Shown here piece by piece: positions 11,952 through 60,254 of a DNA stretch of 64,000 bases. The first letter of the stretch is position 1, and each line of letters begins with the position of its first letter. This DNA comes from an uncultured Actinomycetota bacterium. GTDB taxonomy: Bacteria; Actinomycetota; Actinomycetes; Actinomycetales; CAWJMD01. Position numbers and translations under genes: made by a program. The notes beneath the pieces are model-generated. The model did not search any database. It saw only the letters and a list, made by a program, of their open reading frames with translations, and was not told where the DNA came from. The stretch is from the NCBI GenBank assembly GCA_963843835.1, contig CAWJMD010000008.1:388043-452042 (forward strand), in the 5' to 3' direction.

Positions 11952-12203
11952 GAGCAGTTCGGCGTCGTCCACGGTTCCCTCGCCTGCCGTCGGGTGCGGG
12001 GCGGCATGCCCCGTGCGGGTGCATCGGCAGGGTCTCGCGTGCCCTTGAGCGTGCTGGAGGGCCTGTACTGGCGTGGTGGGTGGTGCGCAGGAGGCTGGTG
12101 AGGCAGACTGTGCCTCGCGAGCACGCCGCCGCACCGGGCGACGCCCGTGGTGAGCACCGAGGTCCGTGGGGAAGACGTACCTCAAGCCACCAGGGAGGTC
12201 GGT

Positions 12204-12707
12204 ATGTCTGGTTCCATCACGCGGGGCGTGGTGTTCGTGCACTCCGCGCCGCGCGCACTGTGCCCTCACGTCGAGTGGGCCGCGGGCGGAGTCCTCGACG
12301 TCCGCGTCTCCATGGACTGGACGGCGCAGCCCGTAGCCCCCGGCATGTTCCGCGCCGAGCTGTCGTGGCAGGCGCCGGCCGGTACCGGTGCGCGCCTCAC
12401 GTCGGCCCTGCGCGGCTGGGCGCACCTGCGCTACGAGGTCACCGAGGAGCCCAGCGCGGGCGTCGACGGCGGCCGCTGGAGCCACACCCCGGAGCTCGGC
12501 ATCTTCCACGCCGTCACCGACGTCCACGGCAACGTCGTCGTCCCCGAGGACCGGATCCGGTCCGCCCTGGCCGTCGGAGCCGGCGACCCGTCCCGGCTGC
12601 AGCGCGAGATGGACCTGGCGCTGGGCCAGGCGTGGGACGACGAGCTGGAGCCGTTCCGGTACGCCGGCGACGGCGCCCCCGTCCGGTGGCTGCACCGCGT
12701 GGGGTGA
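12204..12707 (+). CDS. DUF3145 domain-containing protein
   Basis: MSGSITRGVVFVHSAPRALCPHVEWA...SWQAPAGTGARL matches my memory of the DUF3145 family. GGGAGG lies upstream of ATG 12204. Confidence 0.7.
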   Translation: MSGSITRGVVFVHSAPRALCPHVEWAAGGVLDVRVSMDWTAQPVAPGMFRAELSWQAPAGTGARLTSALRGWAHLRYEVTEEPSAGVDGGRWSHTPELGIFHAVTDVHGNVVVPEDRIRSALAVGAGDPSRLQREMDLALGQAWDDELEPFRYAGDGAPVRWLHRVG

Positions 12708-12787: not shown

Positions 12788-13412
12788 GGGCCGAGGGGTG
12801 CAGCAGGGGGACGAACCCGTGTCGCAGGGCCAACACCGAGGTCGGCGGCGTCAGCACGTGCACGGCTCCGACCGGGCGGGGCGTGGGGGAGTGCCAGCCG
12901 GCGAAGCCGAACCTGAGCGCGCGGTCGGCCAGGAGCAGGAGGGCGTCATCGCCGACGCCGACGACGGTGCCGGACGGCAGGTCCGCGGCGGGTGCGGGCC
13001 AGACGAGCCGGTCCGCCGCCCGCACCATCCCGCGACCGGGGCGCAGCCGCTCGCCGGCGAGCCGGCGGTCGAGCTCGGCGGCGCTCACCGGTGAGGAGGA
13101 GCCGCTCCCCGACGTCACGGCGCGCTGGTAGCCCAGGTGGTCGTCACGGCGACAGAAGCCGCACGGACGGTGTCCGGCGGCCAGGACGACGGCGTCGTCG
13201 AGGAAGAACACCGGGGTCCACCGCCCCGAACGTGCGAGCCCGACGCGCCGACCCCGGAGGTCGAGCACGCAGGCGATCCACAGGCGGCCTGCGTGGTGAC
13301 GCACCATGTGCTCGTCGTCGTCCACGAGGCAGCCGCGGTTGCCGGTGAGCAGCCCTCGGTCGGGCACGGCGTGCAGGTCGCCCCACGGGTCGACGCGGTT
13401 GCGTCGCGCCAC
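12777..13412 (-). CDS. conserved hypothetical protein with Cys cluster (HRPCGFCRR)
   Basis: GTG 13412 within track ORF 12777..13562. The sequence VARRNRVDPWGDLHAVPDRGLLTGNRGCLVDD...FFLDDAVVLAAGHRPCGFCRRDD looks protein-like. Function unknown. Confidence 0.6.
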   Translation of the reverse strand: MARRNRVDPWGDLHAVPDRGLLTGNRGCLVDDDEHMVRHHAGRLWIACVLDLRGRRVGLARSGRWTPVFFLDDAVVLAAGHRPCGFCRRDDHLGYQRAVTSGSGSSSPVSAAELDRRLAGERLRPGRGMVRAADRLVWPAPAADLPSGTVVGVGDDALLLLADRALRFGFAGWHSPTPRPVGAVHVLTPPTSVLALRHGFVPLLHPSARVL

Positions 13413-13428: not shown

Positions 13429-14886
13429 CTACAGCGGGATGTTGCCGTGGGCGCCCCGCCGCGCGGGAGCGTCGGCGATGGCACGTGCGAGGGCCGTGCG
13501 GGTCTCCTGGGGTGTGACCACCTCGTCGACCACGCCGATCTGGACGGCGCGGTCCAGCCCACCGGCCATGCGCTCGTGCTCGACGGCCAGCTCGGACTCG
13601 ACCTGCGCCCTGGCGTCGTCGGGCACCTCGGCCAGCTTGCGGCGGTGCAGGATCCGCACGGCGGCGACCGCGCCCATCACCGCGACCTCGGCGCCCGGCC
13701 ACGCGAAGACACGGGTCGCCCCGAGCGAGCGCGAGTTCATCGCGATGTACGCGCCGCCGTAGGTCTTGCGCGTCACCAGGGTCACCCGCGGCACGGTCGC
13801 CTCGGCGAAGGCGTGCAGGAGCTTGGCGCCGCGGCGCACGACGCCGTCCCACTCCTGGCCGACGCCGGGCAGGTAGCCGGGGACGTCGACGAGGACGACA
13901 AGCGGCACGCCGAACGCGTCGCACATGCGCACGAAGCGCGCGGCCTTCTCGGCCGACGACGAGTCCAGGCACCCGCCCAGTCGCAGCGGGTTGTTGGCGA
14001 CGACGCCCACGGTGCGCCCACCCAGGCGCCCCAGGGCGGTGACGATGTTCGGCGCCCACTTGGGGTGCAGCTCGATGGCGCCACCCGCCTCGGTCGAGCC
14101 GAGGGGGGCGTCGAGCAGCTCGTCGATGATCGGGTGGACGTCGTACGCCCGCTTGAACGACTCCGGCATGTGGGCCGCGAGGTCGCGGTCCGGCAGGCCG
14201 GGGTCGATCTCGCCCTGGCCGCCGAGCAGCACCGTGATCGCGCGGGCGCGGTCGTAGGCGGCGTCGGTGGACTCGGTCACCACGTGCACGACGCCCGAGC
14301 GGCGGCCGTGCGGCTCGGGACCGCCGAGACGCAGGGCGTCGACGGCCTCGCCGGTGACCGACCGGACCACGTCCGGGCCCGTGACGAAGATGCGGCCGTC
14401 GGGACCGAGGATGACGATGTCGGTGAGCGCCGGCCCGTAGGCGGCGCCACCGGCGGCGGGGCCGATCACGACCGAGATCTGCGGGATCTTGCCGGAGGCC
14501 CGGGTCATGATCGCGAAGACCTCGCCGACGGCGTGCAGCGACACGACGCCCTCACGCAGCCGGGCGCCGCCGGAGTGCCAGAGGCCGACCACGGGGACGC
14601 CGTCGGCCAGCGCACGCTCGTAGGCGACGAGGATGACCTTGCACCCGTCCACGCCCATCGCGCCGCCCTGGATGGTGGCGTCGGAGGCGAAGGCGACGGC
14701 GGCCACCCCGTCGACCGTGCCGGCCGCGGCGAGCATGCCCGAGTCGTCCTGCTCGGTGAGGAGCTCGACGGTGCCGTCGTCGAAGAAGTGCTCGAGGCGC
14801 AGCAGGGGGTTGCGCGGGTCGGTCGCGGGGTCCACCGGCGTACGGCCGGCGGACACGGCCGCCGCACCCTGCCCGGCGGGACTCAT
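13429..14886 (-). CDS. acyl-CoA carboxylase carboxyltransferase (beta) subunit, AccD6-like by context
   Basis: 485-aa ORF with carboxyltransferase motifs (GGAMGVDGCKVI, VVGLWHSGGARLREG, SVVIGPAAGGAAYGPALTD, GGAYIAMNS). It is the last gene of the fab operon. Confidence 0.9.
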   Translation of the reverse strand: MSPAGQGAAAVSAGRTPVDPATDPRNPLLRLEHFFDDGTVELLTEQDDSGMLAAAGTVDGVAAVAFASDATIQGGAMGVDGCKVILVAYERALADGVPVVGLWHSGGARLREGVVSLHAVGEVFAIMTRASGKIPQISVVIGPAAGGAAYGPALTDIVILGPDGRIFVTGPDVVRSVTGEAVDALRLGGPEPHGRRSGVVHVVTESTDAAYDRARAITVLLGGQGEIDPGLPDRDLAAHMPESFKRAYDVHPIIDELLDAPLGSTEAGGAIELHPKWAPNIVTALGRLGGRTVGVVANNPLRLGGCLDSSSAEKAARFVRMCDAFGVPLVVLVDVPGYLPGVGQEWDGVVRRGAKLLHAFAEATVPRVTLVTRKTYGGAYIAMNSRSLGATRVFAWPGAEVAVMGAVAAVRILHRRKLAEVPDDARAQVESELAVEHERMAGGLDRAVQIGVVDEVVTPQETRTALARAIADAPARRGAHGNIPL

Positions 14887-16133
14887 CGGACGCTCCGGAA
14901 CGCGACGGCCACGTTGTGCCCGCCGAAGCCGAACGAGTTGTTCAGCGCGACACCCGGCCCGATGTCGCGCGGCTTGTCGGAGACGACGTCGAGGGTGATG
15001 GCGGGGTCCTTGTCGGTGATGTTGGTGGTGGGCGGCGCCTGGCCGTGGTGCAGCGCGAGGATCGACAGGATCCCCTCGACGGCGCCGGCGGCACCGAGCA
15101 GGTGGCCGGTCATCGACTTCGTCGCGGAGACGGCGACCCGGTCGACGTGCTCGCCGAGCACAGCCGAGATCGCTGCGGACTCCGCGATGTCGCCGGCCGG
15201 AGTGGACGTGGCGTGGGCATTGATGTGCACGAGCTCATCGAGGCCGATGCCGCCCTTCTCGAGCGCCGAGCGCATCGCCCGGGTCGCCCCCAGGCCCTCC
15301 GGGTCGGGGGCGGCGATGTGGTGGGCGTCCGAGGTCAGGCCGGCGGACACCAGCTCCGCGTAGATCCGGGCGCCGCGAGCCTCCGCGTGCTCGGCCGACT
15401 CCAGCACGACCACGCCGGCGCCCTCGCCGAGCACGAAGCCGTCGCGGCTCGTGTCGTACGGGCGCGAGGCCGTCTCGGGGCTGTCGTTGCGGGTCGACAG
15501 GGCGCGCATCGAGGCGAACCCGGCGATCGGCAGCGGGTGGATGGCCGCCTCGGTCCCGCCGGCCATCACGACGTCGGCGCGGCCGGTGCGGATCATGTCG
15601 AGCGCGTACGCCATGGCCTCGGCGCCGGACGCGCACGCCGACACGGGGGAGTGGGCGCCGGCACGGGCACCGAACTCGATGGCCAGGGCACCGGCGGCAC
15701 CGTTGGGCATGAGCATCGGCACGGTCATCGGCAGGACGCGGCGCGGGCCCGACTCCTTGAGCACGTCGTAGGCGTCGAGGAGCGTCCACACGCCGCCGAT
15801 GCCGGTGGCGATGACCATGCCGAGCCGCAGCGGGTCGACGTCCGGGCTGCCGGCGTCGGCCCAGGCCTCGCGGCCGGCGACCATCGCGTACTGGCCCGAG
15901 GGGTCGAGCTTCTTGGCCTCGTGGCGTGGCATCACGTCGGCCGTGGGCACCTCGAGCCGGCACGCGAAGTGCACGGACAGGTCGTAGCGCTCGAGCCACT
16001 CCGCAGGGAGCGCCTTCGCGCCCGACCGGCCGGCCAGGGCCGCCTCCCAGGTGCTGGGCACGTCCCCGCCCAGAGGGGTGGTCGCCCCCATTCCGGTGAC
16101 GACGACGCGACGGTCGGTGGACGGGCTGCTCAT
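14883..16133 (-). CDS. fabF: beta-ketoacyl-ACP synthase II (KasA/FabF type)
   Basis: 416 aa. Active-site context SACASGAEAM, HATSTPAGD and GHLLGAAG. A 4-nt overlap couples it to the carboxyltransferase gene. Confidence 0.9.
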   Translation of the reverse strand: MSSPSTDRRVVVTGMGATTPLGGDVPSTWEAALAGRSGAKALPAEWLERYDLSVHFACRLEVPTADVMPRHEAKKLDPSGQYAMVAGREAWADAGSPDVDPLRLGMVIATGIGGVWTLLDAYDVLKESGPRRVLPMTVPMLMPNGAAGALAIEFGARAGAHSPVSACASGAEAMAYALDMIRTGRADVVMAGGTEAAIHPLPIAGFASMRALSTRNDSPETASRPYDTSRDGFVLGEGAGVVVLESAEHAEARGARIYAELVSAGLTSDAHHIAAPDPEGLGATRAMRSALEKGGIGLDELVHINAHATSTPAGDIAESAAISAVLGEHVDRVAVSATKSMTGHLLGAAGAVEGILSILALHHGQAPPTTNITDKDPAITLDVVSDKPRDIGPGVALNNSFGFGGHNVAVAFRSVR

Positions 16134-16260: not shown

Positions 16261-16509
16261 TCAGCCCTGCGCCTGCTGGACGTAGGCGACGACGTCGCGG
16301 ACGGTCGAGAGGTTCTTGATGTCCTCGTCCGGGATCTTCACGCCGAACTTGTCCTCGGCCTGCACGACGATCGAGGTCATCGACAGCGAGTCGATGTCGA
16401 GGTCCTCGGTGAAGGACTTGTCGAGCTCGACGGACTCGGTCGGCAGACCGGTCTCCTCGTTGACCAGCTCGGCGATGCCCTGGAGGATCTCCTGCTCGCT
16501 CTGCGCCAT
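16261..16509 (-). CDS. acpP: acyl carrier protein
   Basis: 82 aa with the phosphopantetheine attachment motif LDIDSLSM. Confidence 0.95.
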   Translation of the reverse strand: MAQSEQEILQGIAELVNEETGLPTESVELDKSFTEDLDIDSLSMTSIVVQAEDKFGVKIPDEDIKNLSTVRDVVAYVQQAQG

Positions 16510-16628: not shown

Positions 16629-17630
16629 CTAGGGCAGCTCGACCACCTGGGCGGCGTACGCGAGGCCGGCGCCGAACCCGATCAGCAGGGCGAGGCCTCC
16701 GTGCGGCGCGCTGCCGTCGGCGAGCATGCGGTGCATCGCGAGCGGGATCGACGCCGCCGAGGTGTTGCCGGTCTCGGCGATGTCGCGGGCGACCGGCACG
16801 TGCTCGGGCAGACCGAGCTGCTTGACCATCGCGTCGATGATGCGGACGTTGGCCTGGTGGGGGATGAACGCCGCCAGGTCGTCCGGCGTGATGCCCGCCG
16901 CCTCGATGGCCTTGCGGGCCACCGGCGCCATCTGCCAGACCGCCCAGCGGAAGACGCTCTGTCCCGCCATGCGCAGGGTGGGCCACTCGAGCTCAGGGTC
17001 GTCGCGCAGCTGGTCCCACGACTGGTTCTGGGTGATGACGTCCCACATGTTGCCGTCGCTGCCCCAGAGCGTGGGGCCGATGCCCGGGGTGTCGGACGCG
17101 CTGACGACGACGGCGCCCGCGCCGTCGCCGAAGATGAACGCGCTGGAGCGGTCGCGGGGGTCGGTGATCTCCGAGAGCTTCTCCACGCCGATGACGAGCA
17201 CGTGGCGGGCCGAGCCACCGCGGACCATGTCGCTGGCCAGGCCGACGCCGTGGCAGAAGCCCGCGCAGGCCGCTGAGATGTCGAACGCGGCGGCCGGGGT
17301 GGCGCCGAGCCGGTGGGCGACCAGTGGTGCGGCAGCGGGGGTCTGGTACAGGTGCGTCACGGTCGCGACGAGGACGACGTCGATGTCGGCCCCGGTCAGC
17401 CCGGCGTTCGCGATCGCCTCGGCACCGGCGGCCTCGCCCATGTCGACGACGGTCTGGCCGGGCGCGGCCCAGCGACGCGTCACGATACCGGAGCGCTCGC
17501 GGATCCACTCGTCGGAGGAGTCGATGTACTGGCAGATCTCCTCGTTGGTGACGACGCGCTCGGGGCGGTAGGCGCCGACGCCGGTCAGCCGGGCGTGAGC
17601 AGCGCCCGTGGGCGTGACGAGGCCGGTCAT
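16629..17630 (-). CDS. fabH: beta-ketoacyl-ACP synthase III
   Basis: ATG 17630 within track ORF 16629..18065. Motifs DISAACAGF (Cys), IPHQANVRI (His) and GNTSAASIP (Asn). The ATGA overlaps the fabD stop. Confidence 0.9.
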   Translation of the reverse strand: MTGLVTPTGAAHARLTGVGAYRPERVVTNEEICQYIDSSDEWIRERSGIVTRRWAAPGQTVVDMGEAAGAEAIANAGLTGADIDVVLVATVTHLYQTPAAAPLVAHRLGATPAAAFDISAACAGFCHGVGLASDMVRGGSARHVLVIGVEKLSEITDPRDRSSAFIFGDGAGAVVVSASDTPGIGPTLWGSDGNMWDVITQNQSWDQLRDDPELEWPTLRMAGQSVFRWAVWQMAPVARKAIEAAGITPDDLAAFIPHQANVRIIDAMVKQLGLPEHVPVARDIAETGNTSAASIPLAMHRMLADGSAPHGGLALLIGFGAGLAYAAQVVELP

Positions 17631-18814
17631 GACGAGCTCCCGGCGGGGTGGAGCCGCAGCAGGGGCTGGCCGGGGGAGACGGGGTCGCCCTCCTCCACCA
17701 GCCACTCCACGACCGTGCCGCCGTGCTGGGCGCGCACGTCGTGCCCGTCGCGCAGGCCCTCGACGCGGGCTACCACGCTGCCTGCCACGACGTCGTCGCC
17801 GGCGCCGGCGGCGGTCAGGAGCCGGACGGCACCCTTGGCGGGCGCCACGACCAGACGCCACGTCGGCGAGCTCTGCAGAGGACTGCCGACGCCGTGGCGC
17901 TCGACCATGTCGCGCGCCGTGTCGAGGTCGGCCGGCGTCTTGAGCGCGAGCGTCTCGACCCCGGGCAGCGCCCGCTTGGCGAGGTTGGTCAGCGTTCCGG
18001 CCGGCGGGATCTCGATCAGGCCGGTCACGCCGAGCTCGGCGAAGGTCTGCATGCAGAGGTCCCAACGCACCGGGTTGCTCACCTGGGTGACGAGGCGCTT
18101 GAGGACGTCGCGACCGTCGTGGACGACGGTGCCGTCGGCGTTGGACAGCAGCAGGGCCCGCGGGTCGTGGGTCGACATCGCCCGCGCGTGGCGGCCGAGC
18201 ACGTCGACGGCCGGCGACATGTGCCGGGTGTGGAAGGCGCCGGCGACCTGGAGCGGGATGACGCGGGCCTTGGCCGGCGGCTCGTCCGCCAGCGCGGCCA
18301 GCTCGTCCATGGTGCCGGCGGCGACGACCTGGCCGGCCCCGTTGACGTTGGCCGGGGTGAGTCCGTGCTTGTCGAGGGCCGCGAGCACCTCGTCCGGGTC
18401 GCCGCCCACGACGGCGCTCATGCCGGTCGGCGTGACCGCGCTGGCCCCGGCCATCGCCCGTCCGCGCTCGCGCACGAAGACCATGGCCTGCTCGGCGCTG
18501 ATCACGCCGGCCGCCGACGCGGCCGTGATCTCACCGACGCTGTGACCGGCTCCGCCCGCGATCACCGCGAAGGCGTCGGCGGGGTGGGGGAACAGGGCGA
18601 GGAGCGACACGAGGCCGGCGCCCACGATGAGGGGCTGCGCCACGGCGGTGTCGCGGATGGTGTCGGCGTCGGAGGTGGTGCCGTGCGCGACGAGGTCGAG
18701 ACCGGCGACGGTCCCGAGCCAGTCGAGACGCTCACGGAAGCCCGGTACCTCCAGCCACGGGGAGAGGAAGCCGGGGCTCTGGGACCCCTGGCCGGGGCAG
18801 ACGATGACGAGCAC
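17627..18814 (-). CDS. fabD: malonyl-CoA:ACP transacylase with ~85-aa C-terminal biotinyl/lipoyl-like domain
   Basis: GTG 18814 preceded by GGAAGGTGGAG. FabD motifs CPGQGSQ, GHSVGE and the AGAFHT region. An extra C-terminus follows: WRLVVAPAKGAVRLL...VVARVEGLRDGHDVRAQHGGTVVEWLVEEGDPVSPGQPLLRLHP. Confidence 0.85.
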   Translation of the reverse strand: MLVIVCPGQGSQSPGFLSPWLEVPGFRERLDWLGTVAGLDLVAHGTTSDADTIRDTAVAQPLIVGAGLVSLLALFPHPADAFAVIAGGAGHSVGEITAASAAGVISAEQAMVFVRERGRAMAGASAVTPTGMSAVVGGDPDEVLAALDKHGLTPANVNGAGQVVAAGTMDELAALADEPPAKARVIPLQVAGAFHTRHMSPAVDVLGRHARAMSTHDPRALLLSNADGTVVHDGRDVLKRLVTQVSNPVRWDLCMQTFAELGVTGLIEIPPAGTLTNLAKRALPGVETLALKTPADLDTARDMVERHGVGSPLQSSPTWRLVVAPAKGAVRLLTAAGAGDDVVAGSVVARVEGLRDGHDVRAQHGGTVVEWLVEEGDPVSPGQPLLRLHPAGSSS

Positions 18815-18891: not shown

Positions 18892-20115
18892 CTACAAGAC
18901 GGTGCGTGGGCCGGCCAGCAACCCGATGGCCAGGGCGACCTGGAGGACGTAGCCGTCGCGCGGGCGGGTCGCGTCCCACCCGGTGACCTCGGCGACCCGG
19001 CGCAGCCGGTAGCGGACCGTGTTCGGGTGCACGAAGAGCGTGCGCGCGGTGCCCTCGAGCGAGCGGCCCCCTTCGAGGTAGGCCGCCACGGTCTCCGCCA
19101 GCACCGGGCCGGCGGCCTGCAGCGGGTGGTACACGCGGTCCAGCAGGGCGCGCCGGGCCGACACGTCGCCGGAGAGCACGCGCTCGGGCAGCAGGTCGTC
19201 CGCGTCGACCGGGCGGGGTGCGGACGGCCAGGCCCGGGCCGCGACGAGCCCGGCGAGCGCCACCCGCGCCGAGTGGCCGGCACCGGGAAGGTCGGTGACC
19301 GTCGGCCCGACCACGACGGGACCCGGCCCGAAGCGGGGGGCGAGGTTGGTGGCTGCGGCCGCCGGGTCCGAGCTGGTCCCGAGCACGACCACGACGCGGT
19401 CGCCCTGCACGCCGACGAGCGCGTCGTCCGCCGCCGTCCGTGCCGCGCGGCGCAGGTCGTCGACCACCTGCTCGGGCGGTCCTGGACGGTTGGCGCCCAC
19501 CACGACGGTGACCGCTGCGTGCTCGTGCCACCCGAGCGCGGCGACGCGCGACTGCAGCGCGTCGTCCGTGTCGCCCCTCAGCAGGGCGTCCACGACGAGG
19601 GCCTCGAGCCGGGCGTCCCAGGCGCCGCGCGTCTCGGCCGCCTGCGCGTAGACCTCGGCCGCCGCGAACGCGACCTCCCGCGAGTACCGCAGCACCGCCT
19701 CCTTCACGGCGGCGAGCTGGCGGGGGTCGTCCGGGTCGTCGGTGAGCGCTTCGACATGGTCCTCGACGACGTCGACGACGGCCCGCACCAGCTCGAGGGT
19801 CTGACGCAGGCTGATCGACCGGGTGAGCTCGCGGGGCGCCGTCCCGAACACGTCGGCCGTGATCGTCAGCGGCCCGGAAGGCTCGGCGAACCACGTGGTG
19901 AAGGCGCGGATGCCCGCCTGCGCGACGAGCCCGACCCACGACCTGTCCTCGGGCTCCATCGCCCGGTACCAGGGCAGCGTCTCGTCGAGCCGGCGCAGCG
20001 CGGCCGTCGACAGTCCGGCGACGGCGCGGCGCTGGCGCGTCGACGTGCCGGACGGCCTGACGGCCCTCGACGCGCGGACGCGCCCCGTCCGCGTCCCCGC
20101 GTCCGCCCTCGACAT
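18892..20115 (-). CDS. PucR-family transcriptional regulator (fab-operon-associated type)
   Basis: 407 aa. C-terminal PucR HTH (LFVHPNTVRYRLRRVAEVTGWD). Located between aceE and fabD, as in other actinobacteria. Confidence 0.8.
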   Translation of the reverse strand: MSRADAGTRTGRVRASRAVRPSGTSTRQRRAVAGLSTAALRRLDETLPWYRAMEPEDRSWVGLVAQAGIRAFTTWFAEPSGPLTITADVFGTAPRELTRSISLRQTLELVRAVVDVVEDHVEALTDDPDDPRQLAAVKEAVLRYSREVAFAAAEVYAQAAETRGAWDARLEALVVDALLRGDTDDALQSRVAALGWHEHAAVTVVVGANRPGPPEQVVDDLRRAARTAADDALVGVQGDRVVVVLGTSSDPAAAATNLAPRFGPGPVVVGPTVTDLPGAGHSARVALAGLVAARAWPSAPRPVDADDLLPERVLSGDVSARRALLDRVYHPLQAAGPVLAETVAAYLEGGRSLEGTARTLFVHPNTVRYRLRRVAEVTGWDATRPRDGYVLQVALAIGLLAGPRTVL

Positions 20116-20198: not shown

Positions 20199-23000
20199 TC
20201 AGGCATCCCCGCCGGCGGTGCCGGAGGAGCCCGCGGTGATGTCGTTCAGCTTGTACAGCTCGTAGGCCATCGACGGGGCCAGCCGGTCGACCTGGCCGCG
20301 CAGTGCGAGCATGCGCAGCGCCTGGTAGGCCACCGACGGGCCGTCGATGTGGAAGTAGCGGCGCACGGCCGCGCGGGTGTCGGACAGCCCGAACCCGTCG
20401 GCGCCCAGGGACCGGAACTCGTTCGGCACGAACTGGCGCACCTGGTCCGGTACGGCCCGCATGTAGTCGCTGACCGCCACCACCGGGCCCTCGCGACCCT
20501 CGAGCTGGCGGGCCAGGAACGGCACCGGCGTCTCCTCGCCGGGCCGGTCGAACGCCCACGCGTCGCAGGACATGCCGTCGCGGCGCAGCTCGCTCCACGA
20601 CGTCACGCTCCACACGTCCGCCGCCACGCCGAAGTCCTTGGCGAGCAGCTCCTGCGCCTCGAGCGCCCACGCCACCCCGACGCCCGACGCCATCAGCTGA
20701 GCACGTCGCCCGACCGCGTTGTGCTCGCCGTTGGCGGCGACCTCGTCGTCCGCGGCGCGCAGCAGGTAGGCGCCACGCAGCAGCCCCTCGACGTCGAGCC
20801 CCTCGGGCTCGGCCGGCTGCACGGCCGGCTCGTTGTAGACCGTGAGGTAGTACATGACGTCGCGGTCCCGCTGTCCGTGCTGACCGTCGGCGAGGGGGTC
20901 GGGCCCCTCACCGAACATGCGCTGCAGCCCGTCGCGGACGATGTGACCCAGCTCGTACCCGAAGGCGGGGTCGTACGAGACGACCGCCGGGTTCGTGGAC
21001 GCGAGCAGCGGCGAGTGGCCGTCCGCGTGCTGCAGACCCTCACCGGTCAGGGTCGTGCGGCCGGCCGTGGCGCCGATCATGAACCCGCGGGTCATCTGGT
21101 CGCCGGCCGCCCAGATGCCGTCGCCGGTGCGCTGGAACCCGAACATCGAGTAGAAGACGTAGACCGGGATCATCGGCTCGCCGTGCGTGGCGTACGACGT
21201 GCCCGCCGCGGTCATCGCCGCGATCGCGCCCGCCTCGTTGATGCCGACGTGCAGGATCTGGCCCTGGGCCGACTCCTTGTACGCGAGCATCAGCTCGCGG
21301 TCCACGGACGTGTAGTTCTGGCCGTGCGGGTTGTAGATCTTGATCGTCGGGAAGAACGAGTCCATCCCGAACGTGCGCGCCTCGTCAGGGATGATCGGCA
21401 CGACGCGCGGCCCGAACTCCTTGTCGCGCATCAGGTCCTTGAGCAGCCGGACGAACGCCATCGTGGTGGCGATCTGCTGCTTGCCCGAGCCCTTCTTCGA
21501 GCCGGCGTAGGCCTCGTCACCCGGCAGCTTCACGGCCGTGGTCGGTACGCGGCGCTGCGGCAGGTGCCCCCCGAGCGCGCGGCGGCGCTCCTGCAGGTAC
21601 TGGATCTCGGGGCTGTCCGGGCCGGGGGTGTAGTACGGCGGCAGGTACGGGTCGGCCTCGAGCTGCTCGTCGGTGACCGGGATGCGCAGGCCGTCGCGGA
21701 ACGTCTTGAGGTCGTCCAGCGTCAGCTTCTTCATCTGGTGGGTCGCGTTGCGCCCGGCGAAGTTGGCACCCAGGCCGTAGCCCTTGATGGTCTTGGCGAG
21801 GATGACCGTCGGCTGCCCGGTGTGCTCCGTCGCGGCCGCGTAGGCGGCGAACACCTTGCGGTAGTCGTGCCCGCCGCGCTTGAGGGACCAGATCTGGTCG
21901 TCCGTCATGTCCTGGACCATCGAGCGCGTCCGAGGGTCGCGCCCGAAGAAGTGCTCGCGGATGAACGCGCCGTTCTCGGCGCGGTAGGTCTGGTAGTCGC
22001 CGTCCGGGGTCGAGTTCATCAGGTGGACGAGCGCCCCGTGCGAGTCCTTGGCCAGCAACGTGTCCCACTCGCGGCCCCACACGACCTTGATGACGTTCCA
22101 GCCGGCGCCACGGAAGTAGGACTCGAGCTCCTGGATGATCTTGCCGTTGCCGCGCACCGGGCCGTCGAGGCGCTGGAGGTTGCAGTTGATGACGAACGTC
22201 AGGTTGTCGAGCTCCTCGTTCGCCGCGACCTGGAGGAGGCCACGGCTCTCCGGCTCGTCCATCTCGCCGTCGCCGAGGAACGCCCACACCCGCTGGCCGG
22301 ACGTGTCCTTGATCCCGCGGTTCTGCAGGTACTTGTTGAACTGCGCCTGGTAGATGGCGTTCATCGGGCCGAGGCCCATCGACACGGTGGGGAACTGCCA
22401 GAAGTCGGGGGCCAGCCGAGGGTGCGGGTAGGACGGCAGGCCGCCGCCCGGGTGCGACAGCTCCTGCCGGAACCCGTCGAGCTGCTGCTCGGACAGCCGC
22501 CCCTCGAGGTAGGCCCGCGCGTACACGCCGGGGGATGCGTGCCCCTGGATGTAGACCTGGTCGCCGCCGCCCGGGTCGTCCGGACCGCGGAAGAAGTGGT
22601 TGAAGCCCACTTCGTAGAGCGTGGACGACGAGGCGTACGAGGAGATGTGGCCACCGACGGAGATCCCGGGCCGCTGTGCCCGGTGCACGACCATCGCCGA
22701 GTTCCAGCGCAGCAGCGCACGGTAGCGACGCTCCACGTCCTCGTCACCGGGGAACCAGGGCTCGCGCTCGGGCGGGATCGTGTTGACGTAGTCGGTGGCC
22801 GTGAGTGAGGGGACGCCGACACCCAGCTGGCGCGACCGCTGCAGCAGCTCGAGCATCAGGTACCGGGCGCGGCGGCGCCCGGCGGTCTCGGCGACACCGT
22901 CGAGCGACTCGATCCACTCCGAGGTCTCTTCCGGGTCGATGTCCGGCATGTTCGTCGGCAGCCCGTTGAGGATGGGTCCGGCTTCGTCGCGTCCAGCCAC
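20199..23000 (-). CDS. aceE: pyruvate dehydrogenase E1 component (homodimeric type)
   Basis: Intact 933-aa ORF. N-terminus [16 protein letters not shown] and the ThDP-binding region [10 protein letters not shown] are typical of AceE. Confidence 0.95.
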
Positions 23001-55141: not shown

Positions 55142-55289
55142 GGCGCTCGACCGGGGTGCGCCGAGTGGGTGTTGTCGACGCTAGGTGCACGCACTACCGT
55201 CGCCACATGGGAAATGTTGCCAACGATCCTCTGCTCCGGCACCACATGGTGACGACGCGGGGCGTGGGCCGCGTGAGGGCGACGACCAC

Positions 55290-57017
55290 ATGAGCGAGCC
55301 GAGGTCGGCCGACGTCGCCGAGCCCGGGGCCGGTGCCGGTTTCGAGGAGACCGGCGGCGTGCCGCTCGACCAGGTGCTGCGCACTCCGGTGCTGAGCGGA
55401 TCCCGCGTGCTGGCCGGAGCCCAGGGTCTCTCCCGCCCGGTCACGCGGCTCAACGTGATGGAGGTCCCCGACATCCAGCCCTGGGTTCGCCCGGGCGAGC
55501 TGCTGCTCACCGTGGGCTACCCGGTGCGGGACGACCCGGACTCGCTCGGAGAGCTCGTCGAGGGGTTGCACGCGCGGGGTGTCACCGCGCTGGCGATCAA
55601 GCTGGGGCGCTACCTCGACGCCGTCCCCGACAGCGTGCTCGCCATCGCGGACCGGCTCGGCTTCCCCGTCGTCTCCCTGCCCGCCCACGTGTCCTTCGAC
55701 GACGTCCTGACCGACGTGCTCGGCGAGCTTGTGAACCGCCAGGCCAAGGCGCTGGCACGGGCCGAGCGCGTCCACCGTCGCCTGGTCGACGTGGTCCTCA
55801 CCGGCGGGAGCATGGTCGACGTCGCCGAGTCGCTGTCGGACGTGCTGCCCGCCGTCGTCGTGGTGACGACGCCGGACGGCCGTGAGATCGCCTCTGCCGG
55901 ACCGGACGACCTGCAGCGGGTCGTCCGTGGGCAGCCCTGCTTCGACACCACCGGGCGCCTGCGCACCGAGGACCAGTGCGCAGCCCTCGGTCTGCACGCC
56001 GCGGAGCCCGGAGCGGGCACGAGCCCGCTCGTGTCGACCGCGGTGGCGACGGTCTCGGCCGGCGCCCTCGAGCACGGACGGATCGCCGCCTTCGGCGTCG
56101 GGCGTGAGCTGGGCCCGGACGACCTGCACGCCCTGCAGCGGGCTGCCACCGTCTGCGCCCTCGTCGTCACCCGTGACCTCGCCGTCGCCGCGGTCGAGGA
56201 CAAGTACCGCACCGACTACCTGCGGGACCTGCTGCTCGGACGCGCCGGCCGCCCGGAGGACGCCGTCGCCCACGCCCGTGCCTTCGGCTGGGACGTCAGC
56301 CGCCCGCTCGTCGTCGTCGTGCTCGAACCCGACCCCGCGCCACTCGAACCCGATGCCGCCGAGGTCGACGCGGCCCGCCGCCCGACCGTCGACCGGCAGG
56401 CGGCCGCCCTGGCCGGCGCCCTTCGTGCGCGGGAGGGCCAGGCCGCGGTCGCCGGCCTGCGGACCGAGACCGTCGCCCTCGTCGGCGTGCCCTCGGACGG
56501 CGACGTGCGCCGTACCGTGCGCGAGCTCGTCGCCATCGTCCGCGGCGAGGGCGGGGGAGGGCGCCGCGCCTTCGGCGTCGGCGTCAGCCGGGTGTGCGAG
56601 GGCGTCGACCAGATCCCGTTCGGCTACGAGCAGGCGCGGACCGCGGTGCGGGTCGGGCGACAGGTGCACGGGGAGTCGTCCCTGACCCACTTCGACGAGC
56701 TGGGTGTGTACCGGCTCCTCAGCCTGGTCAGCGACGAGGGGGAGCTGCGGTCGTTCGCGGCGGAGACGCTGGGCGAGCTCGCCGGGACCGATCCCGAGGC
56801 CGAGGACCTGCGACGCACCCTCGAGGTGCTGCTGGAGACCAACATCAACGTGGCCGAGACGGCTCGGCGGCTCCACTTCCACTACAACACCCTGCGCTAC
56901 CGCATCGGCAAGCTCGAACGGCTCCTCGGTCCCTTCACCTCCGAGTCGACGCTGCGTCTCGACCTGTCGCTCGCCCTCAAGGTGGTCGCGATGCGTGGTT
57001 TGTCCAACAGCGCGTGA
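55290..57017 (+). CDS. PucR-family transcriptional regulator (purine catabolism regulator-like)
   Basis: N-terminal PucR domain (RLNVMEVPDIQPWVRPGELLLT) and C-terminal HTH (NINVAETARRLHFHYNTLRYRIGKLERL). Transcribed divergently from the allH-like operon. Confidence 0.85.
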   Translation: MSEPRSADVAEPGAGAGFEETGGVPLDQVLRTPVLSGSRVLAGAQGLSRPVTRLNVMEVPDIQPWVRPGELLLTVGYPVRDDPDSLGELVEGLHARGVTALAIKLGRYLDAVPDSVLAIADRLGFPVVSLPAHVSFDDVLTDVLGELVNRQAKALARAERVHRRLVDVVLTGGSMVDVAESLSDVLPAVVVVTTPDGREIASAGPDDLQRVVRGQPCFDTTGRLRTEDQCAALGLHAAEPGAGTSPLVSTAVATVSAGALEHGRIAAFGVGRELGPDDLHALQRAATVCALVVTRDLAVAAVEDKYRTDYLRDLLLGRAGRPEDAVAHARAFGWDVSRPLVVVVLEPDPAPLEPDAAEVDAARRPTVDRQAAALAGALRAREGQAAVAGLRTETVALVGVPSDGDVRRTVRELVAIVRGEGGGGRRAFGVGVSRVCEGVDQIPFGYEQARTAVRVGRQVHGESSLTHFDELGVYRLLSLVSDEGELRSFAAETLGELAGTDPEAEDLRRTLEVLLETNINVAETARRLHFHYNTLRYRIGKLERLLGPFTSESTLRLDLSLALKVVAMRGLSNSA

Positions 57018-57191
57018 CGGCGCTGGAACTCGTTGCCGTCGAGCGGCCTTGAGGGCTGGCAAGACTCGCCCATCCCGCCTGCCTGACACGGACGTAACGT
57101 TCCGTCATCCTGACCGCACGTGCGCTGCGTCACACCTGTCGTGGCGCCAGGGCTCGGTCACCAGCGGGTCCCCTCAGCGAGAGGAACGGGC

Positions 57192-58652
57192 ATGGCCATC
57201 GGATGGAAGCTGCACGGAGACGGGAAGACTCTCGCACCGGGCGAGGTCGTCGCTCCTGACGAGCGACTCACCTGGGGACGGACGGCGGGGCTCGGGGCCC
57301 AGCACGTGGTCGCGATGTTCGGCGCCACCTTCGTCTTCCCCCTGATCATGGGTCTGAACCCCCAGCTCGCGATCATGATGAGCGGCATCGCGACGATCGC
57401 GTTCCTGCTGATCGTGCAGGGCAAGGTGCCCAGCTACCTCGGCACGTCGGCGTCCTTCGTCGGTGGCGTGGCCGCGATCTACGCCCAGGAGGGGACGCCG
57501 CAGCAGGTCACCGGCGCGATCCTCGTGGCCGGCGTGATCCTCGCCCTGGTCGGCGTCCTCATCCACTTCGTCGGTGCCCGGCTGATCTACAGCGTCCTCC
57601 CGCCGGTCGTGACCGGGGCCGTCGTGATGCTGATCGGCTTCAACCTGGCCCCCGTCGTCGCGAACATCTACTGGCCCCAGGACCAGTGGGTCGCCCTGCT
57701 GGTGATGCTCGCCGTCATCCTGATGAGCGTCGGGCTGCGCGGCTTCATCGGCCGCATCTCGATCTTCCTCGGTCTCGTCTTCGGCTACGCGCTCTCGTGG
57801 GTGTTCGACCGGGTCTTCGGGCAGATCACGAGCTACGACGCGGCCGCCGACGACATCACCACCCACTTCCGGGTGAACTGGGCCAACGTCGAGTCGGCGC
57901 CGTGGTTCGGCTTCCCGCCGGCCACCGACACGGCGGCAGGGATCGTCGGCTACCACCTGCCCGAGTTCAAGTGGGTGTTCGTGCTGCTGGTGATCCCCGC
58001 CGTGATCGCCCTGATCGCCGAGAACACCGGGCACGTCAAGGCGGTCGCCGAGATGACCGGCGCCGACCTCGACCCGGTGATGGGCCGTGCGATCGCCGCC
58101 GACGGCGTCGGCACCGTCCTCGCCTCCGCCGTGGGCGGTTCGCCCACCACCACCTACGCCGAGAACATCGGCGTCATGGCCGCCACCCGGGTGTACTCGA
58201 CCGCGGCCTACTTCGTCGCTGCCGGCGTAGCGATCGCCTTCGGCTTCTCGCCGAAGTTCGGCGCGATCATCTCCGCCACCCCGGGCGGCGTCCTCGGCGG
58301 CATCACCGTGGTGCTCTACGGGATGATCGGCCTGCTGGGCGCGAAGATCTGGAAGGAGAACAACGTCGACTTCGGCAACCCGATCAACCTGGTTCCGGTC
58401 GCCGCGGGCATCATCATCGCCATCGGCAACACGTCGCTGGTGTTCACCGACACCTTCTCGCTGGCGGGCATCGCGCTCGGCACGATCGTCACCGTGGGCG
58501 CCTACCACCTGGCCCGGGCGGTGGCACCGCCGCACCTTCGCGCCGCCGCCGACTCCCCGAGCCTCGTGCTCGGCGAACCGGGGATGTACACCCAGGAGGA
58601 GACGGACGGCACGCACACCAGGCTGACCAAGCGGGTGGACCGGCCCGAGTAG
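57192..58652 (+). CDS. NCS2-family nucleobase (uracil/xanthine-type) permease
   Basis: ATG 57192 after GAGAGGA. GAQHVVAMFGATFVFPLIMG and TTTYAENIGVMAATRVYS motifs, with about 12-13 TM segments. Confidence 0.85.
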   Translation: MAIGWKLHGDGKTLAPGEVVAPDERLTWGRTAGLGAQHVVAMFGATFVFPLIMGLNPQLAIMMSGIATIAFLLIVQGKVPSYLGTSASFVGGVAAIYAQEGTPQQVTGAILVAGVILALVGVLIHFVGARLIYSVLPPVVTGAVVMLIGFNLAPVVANIYWPQDQWVALLVMLAVILMSVGLRGFIGRISIFLGLVFGYALSWVFDRVFGQITSYDAAADDITTHFRVNWANVESAPWFGFPPATDTAAGIVGYHLPEFKWVFVLLVIPAVIALIAENTGHVKAVAEMTGADLDPVMGRAIAADGVGTVLASAVGGSPTTTYAENIGVMAATRVYSTAAYFVAAGVAIAFGFSPKFGAIISATPGGVLGGITVVLYGMIGLLGAKIWKENNVDFGNPINLVPVAAGIIIAIGNTSLVFTDTFSLAGIALGTIVTVGAYHLARAVAPPHLRAAADSPSLVLGEPGMYTQEETDGTHTRLTKRVDRPE

Positions 58653-58678
58653 GGCTCGCCCACGAGCTCGACGGCCAC

Positions 58679-58715
58679 GTCGGGCCGGGGCTGCTCCCGC
58701 GTACCCCGGCCCGAC
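58679..58715 (+). terminator. stem-loop after permease gene (GTCGGGCCGGGG ... CCCCGGCCCGAC, 13-nt loop)
   Basis: 12-bp perfect inverted repeat, 27 nt after the stop codon. Confidence 0.55.
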
Positions 58716-58830
58716 GCCTGCCGCCCGGTGACCCGGCCGTCCGCACGGCACCGCGACCCGCGGCGGTGTTGACTGGGCAGGAGCCGACCCGACCATGCCA
58801 CGACGACCGAAGGGCAGGCGCGATCCGTCG

Positions 58831-59724
58831 ATGAAGCCGTCCCCGCTGCGCTTCCACCGCCCCGCCACGCTGGACGAGGCGCTGGCGCTCCTGGCCGACC
58901 TCGGCGCGGACGCCAAGGTCCTGGCCGGCGGGCAGAGCCTCGTGCCGATGCTCTCGATGAGGCTGGCCGCCCCGGCGAACATCGTCGACATCACCGCGAT
59001 CCCCGGGATCGACGAGGTGACGGCCGGACCGGACGGCGTGACCTTCGGGGCCCTGGTGACCCACACGGCCCTGCTGTCGCACGACGGGGCCGCCGGTCAC
59101 CAGCCGCTGCTGCGCCGGGCGCTCCGCAATGTCGCGCACCCCACCATCCGCAACCGCGGCACGACGCTGGGCTCGATCGTCCACGCGGACCCCTCGGCCG
59201 AGATGCCCGCCGTGATGGTCCTTCTCGGGGGGACCGTGACGGTCGCCTCCGCCGCCGGCGGCGAGCGGCTGATCGCCGCGTCCGACCTCTTCCTCGGCCC
59301 GCTGGAGTCGTCTCTGGAGCCGACCGAGATCGCCCTGCAGGGCTCCGTGCCGGCTCGCCGGGGCGGTGTGGGCACCGCCGTCGAGGAGCTCGCCCGCAGG
59401 CACGGCGACTACGCGATGGCCGGCGTGGTCGCCCTGGTCGAGGCGACGGAGGGGGTCGTGCGCGCCGCACGGGCCACGTTCGTCTCCGCCGGTGAGCTGG
59501 GGGAGGTGGTCGACCTCGACGCCGCCACCGGGCTGCCGGTCGACGCCCCGCCGGACGCGTGGGCGGTCGTCGCCGACCAGGCGCGCGACCTCGTCCTCAC
59601 CGACGACGACGTCCACGCGACCGCCGCCTACCGCAGCCACCTGGTCGGTGTGCTGACCGCACGGGCCGTGGCCCGTGCCGCGGTCGACGCCACCGACCCC
59701 ACGACCCAGGAGCGTGCAGCGTGA
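58831..59724 (+). CDS. xanthine dehydrogenase family FAD-binding (medium, CoxM/CutM-like) subunit
   Basis: AGGQSLVPMLSMRL, RNRGTTLGSI and the CO-dehydrogenase flavoprotein C-terminal region (ATAAYRSHL). Confidence 0.85.
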   Translation: MKPSPLRFHRPATLDEALALLADLGADAKVLAGGQSLVPMLSMRLAAPANIVDITAIPGIDEVTAGPDGVTFGALVTHTALLSHDGAAGHQPLLRRALRNVAHPTIRNRGTTLGSIVHADPSAEMPAVMVLLGGTVTVASAAGGERLIAASDLFLGPLESSLEPTEIALQGSVPARRGGVGTAVEELARRHGDYAMAGVVALVEATEGVVRAARATFVSAGELGEVVDLDAATGLPVDAPPDAWAVVADQARDLVLTDDDVHATAAYRSHLVGVLTARAVARAAVDATDPTTQERAA

Positions 59725-60254
59725 GCGACGACGACGTGGACGTGCGCGTCAAGGTCAACGGGGTGTGGCGCGAGGTCACCGTCCCCGGGCGTCGCCTGCT
59801 CTCCGACGTGCTGCGGCACGACCTGCGCCTCACCGGTACGCACGTCGGCTGCGAGCACGGTGTCTGTGGTGCCTGCACGGTCCTCGTCGACGGGCAACCC
59901 GCCCGGTCGTGCCTGATGCTGGCGGGCTCCGCCGACGGGCGCGAGGTGACGACCGTCGAGGGGCTCAGTCCCGAGGGCGGCGGCCTGCACCCCGTCCAGC
60001 AGGCGTTCGTCGACTGCCACGGACTCCAGTGCGGCTTCTGCACACCGGGTTTCGTGACGACGATCGCCGCCTACCTGGAAGAGAACCCCGACCCGACGCC
60101 GGAGGAGGCGACCGAGGCCATCGGCGGCAACCTGTGCCGGTGCACGGGCTACCAGAACATCAAGGCAGCCGTGCTGCGGGCGGCCGAGCTCCAGCGCGAC
60201 GCCGCGGCGGCGTCCGGCCCCGCCGGCACCGTGCAGGGCGGTGAGAACGCTTGA
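59721..60254 (+). CDS. (2Fe-2S)-binding small subunit (CoxS/CutS-like)
   Basis: CEHGVCGACTV and CGFCTPG...CRCTGY cluster motifs. GTG 59721 overlaps the upstream stop. Confidence 0.9.
   Translation: MSDDDVDVRVKVNGVWREVTVPGRRLLSDVLRHDLRLTGTHVGCEHGVCGACTVLVDGQPARSCLMLAGSADGREVTTVEGLSPEGGGLHPVQQAFVDCHGLQCGFCTPGFVTTIAAYLEENPDPTPEEATEAIGGNLCRCTGYQNIKAAVLRAAELQRDAAAASGPAGTVQGGENA

Follow-up and report, generated by a model that had tools for sequence, protein, structure and literature searches.

The locus described here lies in a window of 64,000 nt of contig CAWJMD010000008.1 (GCA_963843835.1), obtained from an uncultured Actinomycetota bacterium of the lineage CAWJMD01; the window is the whole stretch of DNA that was analyzed. 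The genes are found on the minus strand in the order aceE, a gene for a PucR-type regulator, fabD, fabH, acpP, a fabF/kasA-type synthase gene, a carboxyltransferase gene, and an open reading frame (ORF) of 208 aa. The element of interest is fabD, encoding a malonyl-CoA:acyl carrier protein transacylase (MCAT) that is continued in the same ORF by a small C-terminal barrel, hereafter the tail. The features and their coordinates are summarized in Table 1. A preliminary description, made from the sequence, had reported a normal FabD with a same-ORF tail at 17627..17880 (-), and the extension was found at this position, corresponding to residues ~312-395 of 395. It had also reported the beta subunit of an acyl-CoA carboxylase in the operon, which was recovered as well. 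The bit score of the operon AccD against M. tuberculosis AccD6 (4fb8) was 655 (E 6e-196), compared with ~380 bits against PccB-type subunits, and by sequence the operon carboxyltransferase is assigned as the AccD6 orthologue.

Table 1. Features of the fab locus in the window, with the basis of each assignment.
Feature	Coordinates	Strand	Basis or remark
aceE (pyruvate dehydrogenase E1)	20199..23000	-	upstream of the regulator
PucR-type regulator (MabR/FasR-like)	18892..20115	-	PF13556 HTH_30 and PF17853 GGDEF_2; upstream of the operon
fabD, 395 aa	17627..18814	-	GTG start 18814..18812 (VLVIVCPGQGSQ); TGA stop 17627..17629
FabD catalytic core, residues 1-305	17900..18814	-	PF00698, AF2 model, catalytic residues
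Flexible linker, residues 306-316 (about 12 residues)	17867..17899	-	low pLDDT, low conservation
BCCP-like beta-barrel, 74 residues, 317-390	17645..17866	-	PF00364, AF2, Foldseek
Lys327 codon, AAG	17834..17836	-	beta1-beta2 turn 'APAKG'; family-specific residue
Arg355 codon, CGC	17750..17752	-	beta-hairpin E-G-L-R-D; position of the biotinyl/lipoyl lysine
fabH (KAS III)	16629..17630	-	PF08545 and PF08541; ATG start 17628..17630
acpP (acyl carrier protein)	16261..16509	-	PF00550, 60.6 bits
fabF/kasA-type KAS I/II	14883..16133	-	PF00109 and PF02801
accD6-type acyl-CoA carboxylase carboxyltransferase (beta) subunit	13429..14886	-	PF01039, 382 bits
Conserved 208-aa ORF after accD	12789..13412	-	no Pfam match
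DUF3145 gene	12102..12707	opposite to the fab genes	
AF2, AlphaFold2; BCCP, biotin carboxyl carrier protein; KAS, ketoacyl-ACP synthase; pLDDT, predicted local distance difference test.

The TGA stop codon of fabD overlaps the ATG start codon of fabH in an ATGA read from the sequence at 17627..17630 (-), which indicates translational coupling and counts against an accidental fusion; the fabF stop and accD start overlap in like manner in the ATGA at 14883..14886 (-). Such four-base overlaps at both the fabD/fabH and the fabF/accD junctions suggest coupling at both ends of the operon. A six-frame hmmsearch of the window identified neither a second biotinyl domain nor an AccA gene, the FabD tail being the sole match.

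In its core, the protein is a typical MCAT. Residues 5-284 matched PF00698 (Acyl_transf_1) with 64 bits (cut-off 32.7), and G90-H91-S92-V93-G94-E95, R117, and H195 are invariant in the 52 aligned relatives, S92 being the catalytic serine of the GHSxG motif, R117 the malonyl-binding residue, and H195 the catalytic histidine. The AF2 model of the whole protein has a pLDDT of 91, and its core was superimposed by Foldseek on S. coelicolor MCAT (1nm2) with a TM score of 0.96 and a root mean square deviation (rmsd) of 1.4 Å at 60% identity; identity to M. tuberculosis FabD over the core is 50%. The catalytic Ser, Arg, and His are common to the canonical enzymes of S. coelicolor (1nm2), M. tuberculosis (2qc3/2qj3), and E. 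coli (1mla). Unlike the FabD described here, all stand-alone FabD/MCAT structures among the Foldseek matches have a length of ~290-326 residues and are without the barrel. The protein misses the cut-off of the NCBIfam FabD equivalog TIGR00128 (156.2 vs 260.9 bits), which is probably why most relatives carry the generic name 'acyltransferase domain-containing protein'; the MdcH (malonate decarboxylase) model TIGR03131 scores 174.4 bits, also below its cut-off of 297.9. Given the fab operon context and the 60% identity to a characterized MCAT, the protein is still considered a FabD despite the missed TIGR00128 cut-off.

The tail is predicted to be a BCCP-type barrel that is unable to accept biotin and is carried on a flexible linker. 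In the AF2 model of the whole protein the mean pLDDT falls to 57 over residues 311-320 and below 50 at residues 315-317, and the length of the linker differs among lineages; the barrel itself is modeled with a pLDDT of 83-93. Modeled alone, the tail forms an eight-strand barrel with a pLDDT of 89 overall and 93-98 over the barrel. PF00364 (Biotin_lipoyl) was matched with 30.9 bits (E 2.4e-7) by the tail alone and with 26.9 bits by the whole protein (cut-off 22.1). A profile built from eight tails gave gapless alignments both to the biotinyl domain of the P. shermanii 1.3S transcarboxylase subunit (1dcz, E 9.6e-9) and to the lipoyl domains of the E2 component of E. coli pyruvate dehydrogenase (7b9k, E 2.6e-10). 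The best PDB matches of the tail in Foldseek are BCCP domains, including that of P. horikoshii (TM 0.82-0.87, rmsd 1.3-1.6 Å), the alpha subunit of M. smegmatis methylcrotonyl-CoA carboxylase (MCC; 37% identity), E. coli BCCP (1bdo, TM 0.78), and Arabidopsis BCCP1. The Pfam call, the PDB profile, AF2, and Foldseek thus agree on the biotinyl/lipoyl-like barrel that had been proposed in the preliminary description. The cut-off of the BCCP equivalog TIGR00531 is missed by the tail (22 vs 115.2 bits).

In functional BCCP and lipoyl carriers the lysine that is modified sits at the beta4-beta5 hairpin tip, within A-M-K-M or D-K-A, and in the tail this lysine is absent, as had been noticed before. 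Arg355 of '...VEGLRDGH...' occupies the column of the modified lysine, opposite 'EAMKM' in 1dcz and 'EGDKA' in 7b9k. Of the 198 aligned relatives, 194 have Arg at position 355 and none has Lys; the exceptions are three acidic-tail proteins, described below, and one sequence with the Arg one position earlier. Lys327 is likewise Lys in 194/198 relatives, being replaced by Pro in the acidic group and by Arg in Terracoccus (L089), and for Lys327, His364, and His389 the number of relatives with the conserved residue ranges from 190 to 194. Lys327 is not part of the hairpin, and its modification by a ligase is not anticipated; from published lipoyl-domain structures it is probably located near the hairpin tip. 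The family signature may be written PTWRL-(V/I)-APAKG ... LRD ... APHGG-x-V-x-EWLVEDGDPVSPGQPLLRLHP.

Among known domains the tail most resembles the BCCP of actinobacterial alpha subunits of the AccA3 or MCC alpha type, which are its best structural matches (9yx0_A, 9yx2; 26-37% identity) and share both the fold and the hairpin geometry. These are the likely evolutionary source of the tail, which differs from them in having Arg for Lys, Leu and Asp for the flanking Mets, and a transacylase in place of biotin carboxylase as the joined enzyme. Identity as an HlyD/RND membrane-fusion protein was rejected. The barrel-sandwich hybrid of these proteins has the same superfold, but HlyD_3 matches only 31 of 106 profile positions (25.8 bits), nothing else in the protein resembles a membrane-fusion protein, and the tail has neither the coiled-coil hairpin nor the other domains of that family and belongs to a cytoplasmic enzyme.

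When one genome per species was scanned with the tail alignment, the tail was found encoded in at least 466 species-level genomes. The matches listed include the orders Micrococcales, Propionibacteriales, Kineosporiales, Nanopelagicales, and Jiangellales; among the carriers listed are Kribbella, Nocardioides, Actinopolymorpha, Janibacter, Knoellia, Intrasporangium, Phycicoccus, Oryzihumus, Pseudokineococcus, Kineosporiaceae, Candidatus Nanopelagicales, Haloactinopolyspora, and a metagenome-assembled genome (MAG) of Streptosporangiales. The closest genome among them is the MAG OY969553.1, at 94% identity. The best 120 protein-database matches are all of 391-424 aa and cover 99-100% of the query, and when the core alone was the query, only three of the best 120 matches (core identity of 76% or more) were without the extension. 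Averaged over columns, conservation is 0.80 in the core, 0.54 in the linker, and 0.74 in the tail, rising to 0.84 in the C-terminal half of the tail, and the alignments indicate that the tail is under purifying selection as strong as that on the enzyme itself.

The fusion is real, widespread, and strongly conserved. A frameshift or an assembly error that joined fabD to a separate small gene might be suspected from the tail-only 'proteins' of 66-148 aa listed by gene callers, but those checked proved to be internal-start mis-calls or contig-end pieces. The tail lies within a single ORF of 391-400 aa in 78/78 full-length genome relatives and of 387-402 aa in every intact relative examined, the metagenome loci likewise having one ORF, and the ATGA junction with fabH is clean; the probability of such an artefact is negligible. 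The preliminary description had itself named two outcomes that would speak against it, a tail without a predicted fold and a stop codon near 17900 in relatives; the fold is predicted, and the relatives have no stop there. Free-standing versions of the tail were discarded on the same grounds. Apparent free-standing tails of 71-90 aa lie inside intact fused ORFs of 392/393 aa (L002, L003), and a third tail-only entry comes from a frameshift-ridden assembly (L001). The entries P0138 (L002 6001..6273) and P0213 (L003 6001..6216) are such internal fragments of an intact 392/393-aa FabD. In public databases fragments of this kind are named 'HlyD family efflux transporter periplasmic adaptor subunit' or 'acetyl-CoA carboxylase biotin carboxyl carrier protein subunit', and the 'HlyD family' name on P0138 is an annotation error. 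The tail accounts for these mis-annotations and probably also for the generic names on its FabDs.

No informative second architecture was found when the tail profile was searched against 1.84 billion representative proteins, of which only 136, mostly fragments, matched at E <= 1e-10; the few long matches were HlyD-like, E2/BCCP-like, or pieces of tail plus FabH. In the metagenome proteins P0252, P0305, and P0315 the tail and FabH (ACP_syn_III) are in one frame, representing either occasional loss of the ATGA, giving FabD-tail-FabH fusions, or assembly or frame errors.

The state of the tail was then compared with the presence of accD next to fabF, and loci without an accD beside fabF are referred to as accD-less. 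FabDs distinct at 98% identity were counted, and the frameshifted L001, L006, and L030 were left out. By tblastn with the operon proteins of the window, the order fasR-fabD(tail)-fabH-acpP-fabF-accD was observed in every canonical locus long enough to judge. All 79 evaluable FabDs with a canonical K327/R355/H364 tail have accD adjacent to fabF, as do the three in which the tail has a single conservative variant; in all seven with a remodeled, decaying, or deleted tail, which represent about four lineages, accD is not adjacent. Comparing canonical with all other tails (79 and 0 vs 3 and 7), Fisher's exact test gave p = 1.7e-8, a value uncorrected for shared ancestry.

The most distinctive of the altered tails are those of the acidic group (P0055, P0057, P0102, P0374, P0375, and P0385), in which the core is 82-83% identical to that of the window. 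Tail residues otherwise invariant in the family are exchanged jointly, namely P317N/T, P325S, K327P, R355S/T/G, H364E, D377E, R387Q, and H389D, and Pro378 is Thr in 6/6. These tails have a net charge of -11 to -12 as compared with -1 to -4 in canonical tails. In 4/4 genomes of this group with retrieved context accD is missing, fabF being followed by a homologue of the 208-aa ORF (orf210) and then by the DUF3145 gene. These loci show a clean excision of accD alone between fabF and orf210. Columns at least 95% conserved in 78 other genomes were compared with the four acidic genomes, and 8/24 such columns were changed in the FabD tail, as against 0/126 in the FabD core (Fisher p 1.4e-7). No changes were found in FabH (0/98) or FabF (0/131), and a single one in each of ACP (1/27, I77V) and the regulator (1/81). 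Counted per genome, the deviations at the 24 conserved tail columns number 8-9 in the acidic group, 4 in L089, and 0-1 in the other 77 genomes.

Further accD-less loci have altered tails of other kinds. Terracoccus (L089) has K327R, R355H, and H364R, and an HNH/DUF222 gene after fabF with no accD there. On two independent metagenome contigs (L111/L112) the tail has T318P/W319A and R355G, and DUF3145 follows fabF directly. In L144 the tail is deleted, leaving a FabD of 322 aa, and fabF is followed by a glycosyltransferase gene and then by DUF3145. Arg355 is thus replaced in every accD-less lineage that still carries a tail. A tail deletion was also found in the FabD of Segeticoccus (L090), which has aceE upstream of the operon; this locus is uninformative about accD because the contig ends before fabF. 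Taken together, the comparison indicates that the tail is constrained only as long as its operon includes an AccD6-type gene, and the link between the tail and AccD6 now rests on comparative evidence that goes beyond resemblance.

These data bear on several alternative roles. The barrel could serve as a scaffold within type II fatty acid synthesis (FAS II), binding ACP, FabH, or a KAS, or oligomerizing FabD, with the carboxylase uninvolved. Such a role would fit the translational coupling of fabD and fabH, the metagenome proteins with tail and FabH in one frame, and the common use of barrel-sandwich domains as protein-protein modules. In the accD-less lineage with the replaced tail surface, however, the conserved columns of the FabD core, FabH, and FabF show no compensating change, and ACP only I77V, which counts against these proteins as partners, and ACP, FabH, and KAS are all retained where the tail has decayed or been deleted. 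We regard the scaffold as unlikely. It is still less probable that the tail is a relic, an old fusion leftover that aids folding or solubility and has no specific partner. The FabDs of Streptomyces and Mycobacterium do work without a tail, and some lineages have deleted it, but the surface residues K327, R355, H364, R387, and H389 hardly vary from order to order, conservation in the C-terminal half of the tail exceeds that of the catalytic core, and the loss of these surface residues tracks one specific gene. Docking of FabD on the E1 component of pyruvate dehydrogenase, with the tail mimicking the lipoyl domain of E2, was considered because aceE lies just upstream of the operon and the best PDB sequence-profile match is E. 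coli E2. The structural matches are BCCP and not lipoyl domains, aceE is still in place in lineages with a remodeled tail, and it also lies upstream of the tail-less FabD of L090, as it does in M. tuberculosis; this explanation is highly improbable.

The explanation that we favor, with a probability of about 0.5, is docking of FabD on the AccD6 carboxylase by means of the tail, which would imitate BCCP while being unable to take biotin. In this view the BCCP domain of an acyl-CoA carboxylase was copied onto the C terminus of FabD, in this organism as in a large group of actinobacteria, and the biotin-accepting lysine is Arg in the copy. The tip of the barrel, formed by the Arg355 hairpin and Lys327, would mimic the part of BCCP that enters the active-site funnel of the carboxylase, and FabD could in this way dock on the AccD6-containing acetyl-CoA carboxylase (ACC) that supplies malonyl-CoA to FAS II. 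The enzyme would thereby be placed at the source of its substrate, allowing a local hand-over of the metabolon type or a tuning of the carboxylase. As partner of the tail the beta subunit is favored over the alpha subunit, since the alpha subunit, comprising biotin carboxylase and BCCP (BC-BCCP), is expected to persist for other carboxylases after loss of accD6 while the constraint on the tail vanishes. In a more specific version, the tail would be a device dedicated to coupling ACC with FAS II: the pseudo-BCCP of FabD would plug into a BCCP-binding site of AccD6, and a single complex would both produce malonyl-CoA and pass the malonyl group to ACP. This version is put forward tentatively and is somewhat doubtful.

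The nearest analogues of such a mimic are the plant BADC proteins, which are BCCP-like, lack the biotinyl lysine, and regulate the plastid heteromeric ACC (PMC12706156, 10.1101/634550). Like BADC, the tail is a BCCP-type barrel that without the biotinyl lysine is unable to carry CO2, and it occurs in a system feeding malonyl units to type II fatty acid synthesis. Unlike BADCs, which are free-standing and act on the BC-BCCP subcomplex, the tail is bacterial and is fused in every intact relative, has its own motifs (PTWRL, APAKG, LRD, APHGG, EWLVEDGDPVSPGQPLLRLHP), and tracks the carboxyltransferase gene; the two are compared by fold and not by orthology. The tail might accordingly act as a brake of the BADC type, competing with the BCCP of the alpha subunit for the carboxylase so that FabD throttles malonyl-CoA production. 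Tail and BADC are alike in combining a BCCP fold with the absence of the biotinyl lysine, the accD-linked residues include those of the hairpin tip, with which BCCP reaches into active sites, and the gene association with accD fits a brake equally well. On the other hand, it is not evident why an enzyme should be joined to an inhibitor of the supply of its own substrate, and BADCs are free-standing and are linked to the tail no further than by the shared fold. A brake seems rather unlikely, and we lean towards tethering over BADC-like competition, the data fitting both. The tether to the carboxylase that had been suggested in the preliminary description is in this way strengthened in one respect, a canonical tail being accompanied by accD in 79/79 loci and altered in 7/7 accD-less loci; channeling, the function attached to it, fits these data no better than BADC-like inhibition.

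Several points weigh against docking on AccD6. The term accD-less refers to the locus and not to the rest of the genome, and the association amounts to about four independent losses set against one large clade and not to 86 independent observations. The acidic-tail lineage keeps its altered tail at 85-92% identity within the group, which implies some role for the tail without an accD in the operon. M. tuberculosis has accD6 in the same operon and a tail-less FabD of 302 aa, so AccD6 needs no tail. A BCCP mimic in the BCCP site should be expected to compete with the real BCCP, pointing to inhibition and not to channeling, and the side chain of Arg, being much shorter than that of biotinyl-lysine, cannot extend into the active site of the carboxyltransferase.

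The fas-II operon of M. tuberculosis is organized as mabR / fabD-acpM-kasA-kasB-accD6, MabR being Rv2242 (PMC11617747). It shares with the window the PucR-type regulator upstream, fabD as the first gene, and the AccD6 carboxyltransferase gene as the last, and it differs from the window in being without fabH, in having two kas genes, and in its tail-less FabD. Full-text literature searches found no publication on a FabD-BCCP-like fusion, and to this extent the earlier statement that the arrangement is undescribed can be kept. The architecture is widespread, and databases already list PF00364 together with PF00698 on tail-bearing FabDs; it is thus better called unstudied than unseen.

Acyl-ACP feedback and transcription are the usual terms in which the balance between malonyl-CoA supply by ACC and consumption by FAS II is still explained in bacteria. 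Physical coupling of ACC and FAS II has long been suspected, and we know of no dedicated structural element for it in bacteria. The tail and the operon AccD6 offer a testable handle on such coupling, since a single domain, a single partner, and two or three residues are involved. The pseudo-BCCP idea would be extended from plants to bacteria. If malonyl-CoA is indeed made and handed to ACP in one complex, the tail would correspond to plant BADC in a bacterial form fused to an enzyme, and no earlier structural element dedicated to linking bacterial ACC with FAS II would be known. The lineages concerned include abundant actinobacteria of freshwater (Nanopelagicales) and soil (Kribbella, Nocardioides, Intrasporangiaceae), and the tail may be of use where the flux of malonyl-CoA is to be engineered in actinobacteria that produce polyketides and fatty acids.

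Some observations on the surroundings of the operon were also made. ORFs of ~208-210 aa homologous to the 208-aa ORF of the window are found in the accD-less relatives L084 (11926..12558) and L086 (11920..12549), with 61-64% identity to the window copy, and together with the opposite-facing DUF3145 gene they are apparent members of the fab neighborhood. The gene aceE lies upstream of the regulator and fabD in the window and in L084, L086, L087, L089, and L090, be the tail canonical, remodeled, or absent, with an extra gene between aceE and the regulator in some of these relatives. The gene order of M. tuberculosis, Rv2241-Rv2243 with aceE as Rv2241, is the same, and the arrangement seems to be an ancient one with no relation to the tail. 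In the accD-less relative L088 (1..4680) the place of aceE upstream of the regulator is taken by a large RHS/YD-repeat gene and a small downstream ORF. At 55185..62701 (+) the window encodes a second regulator of the PucR family (PucR, GGDEF_2, HTH_30) together with a neighboring xanthine/uracil permease and a molybdopterin xanthine-dehydrogenase-type subunit; this region looks like a purine catabolism cluster unrelated to the FabD tail. Finally, scaffolds 2 and 1 of Kribbella jiaozuonensis (L073, L074) apparently carry the same fab operon, with identical tblastn coordinates and identities, reflecting either a duplication or redundancy of the assembly.

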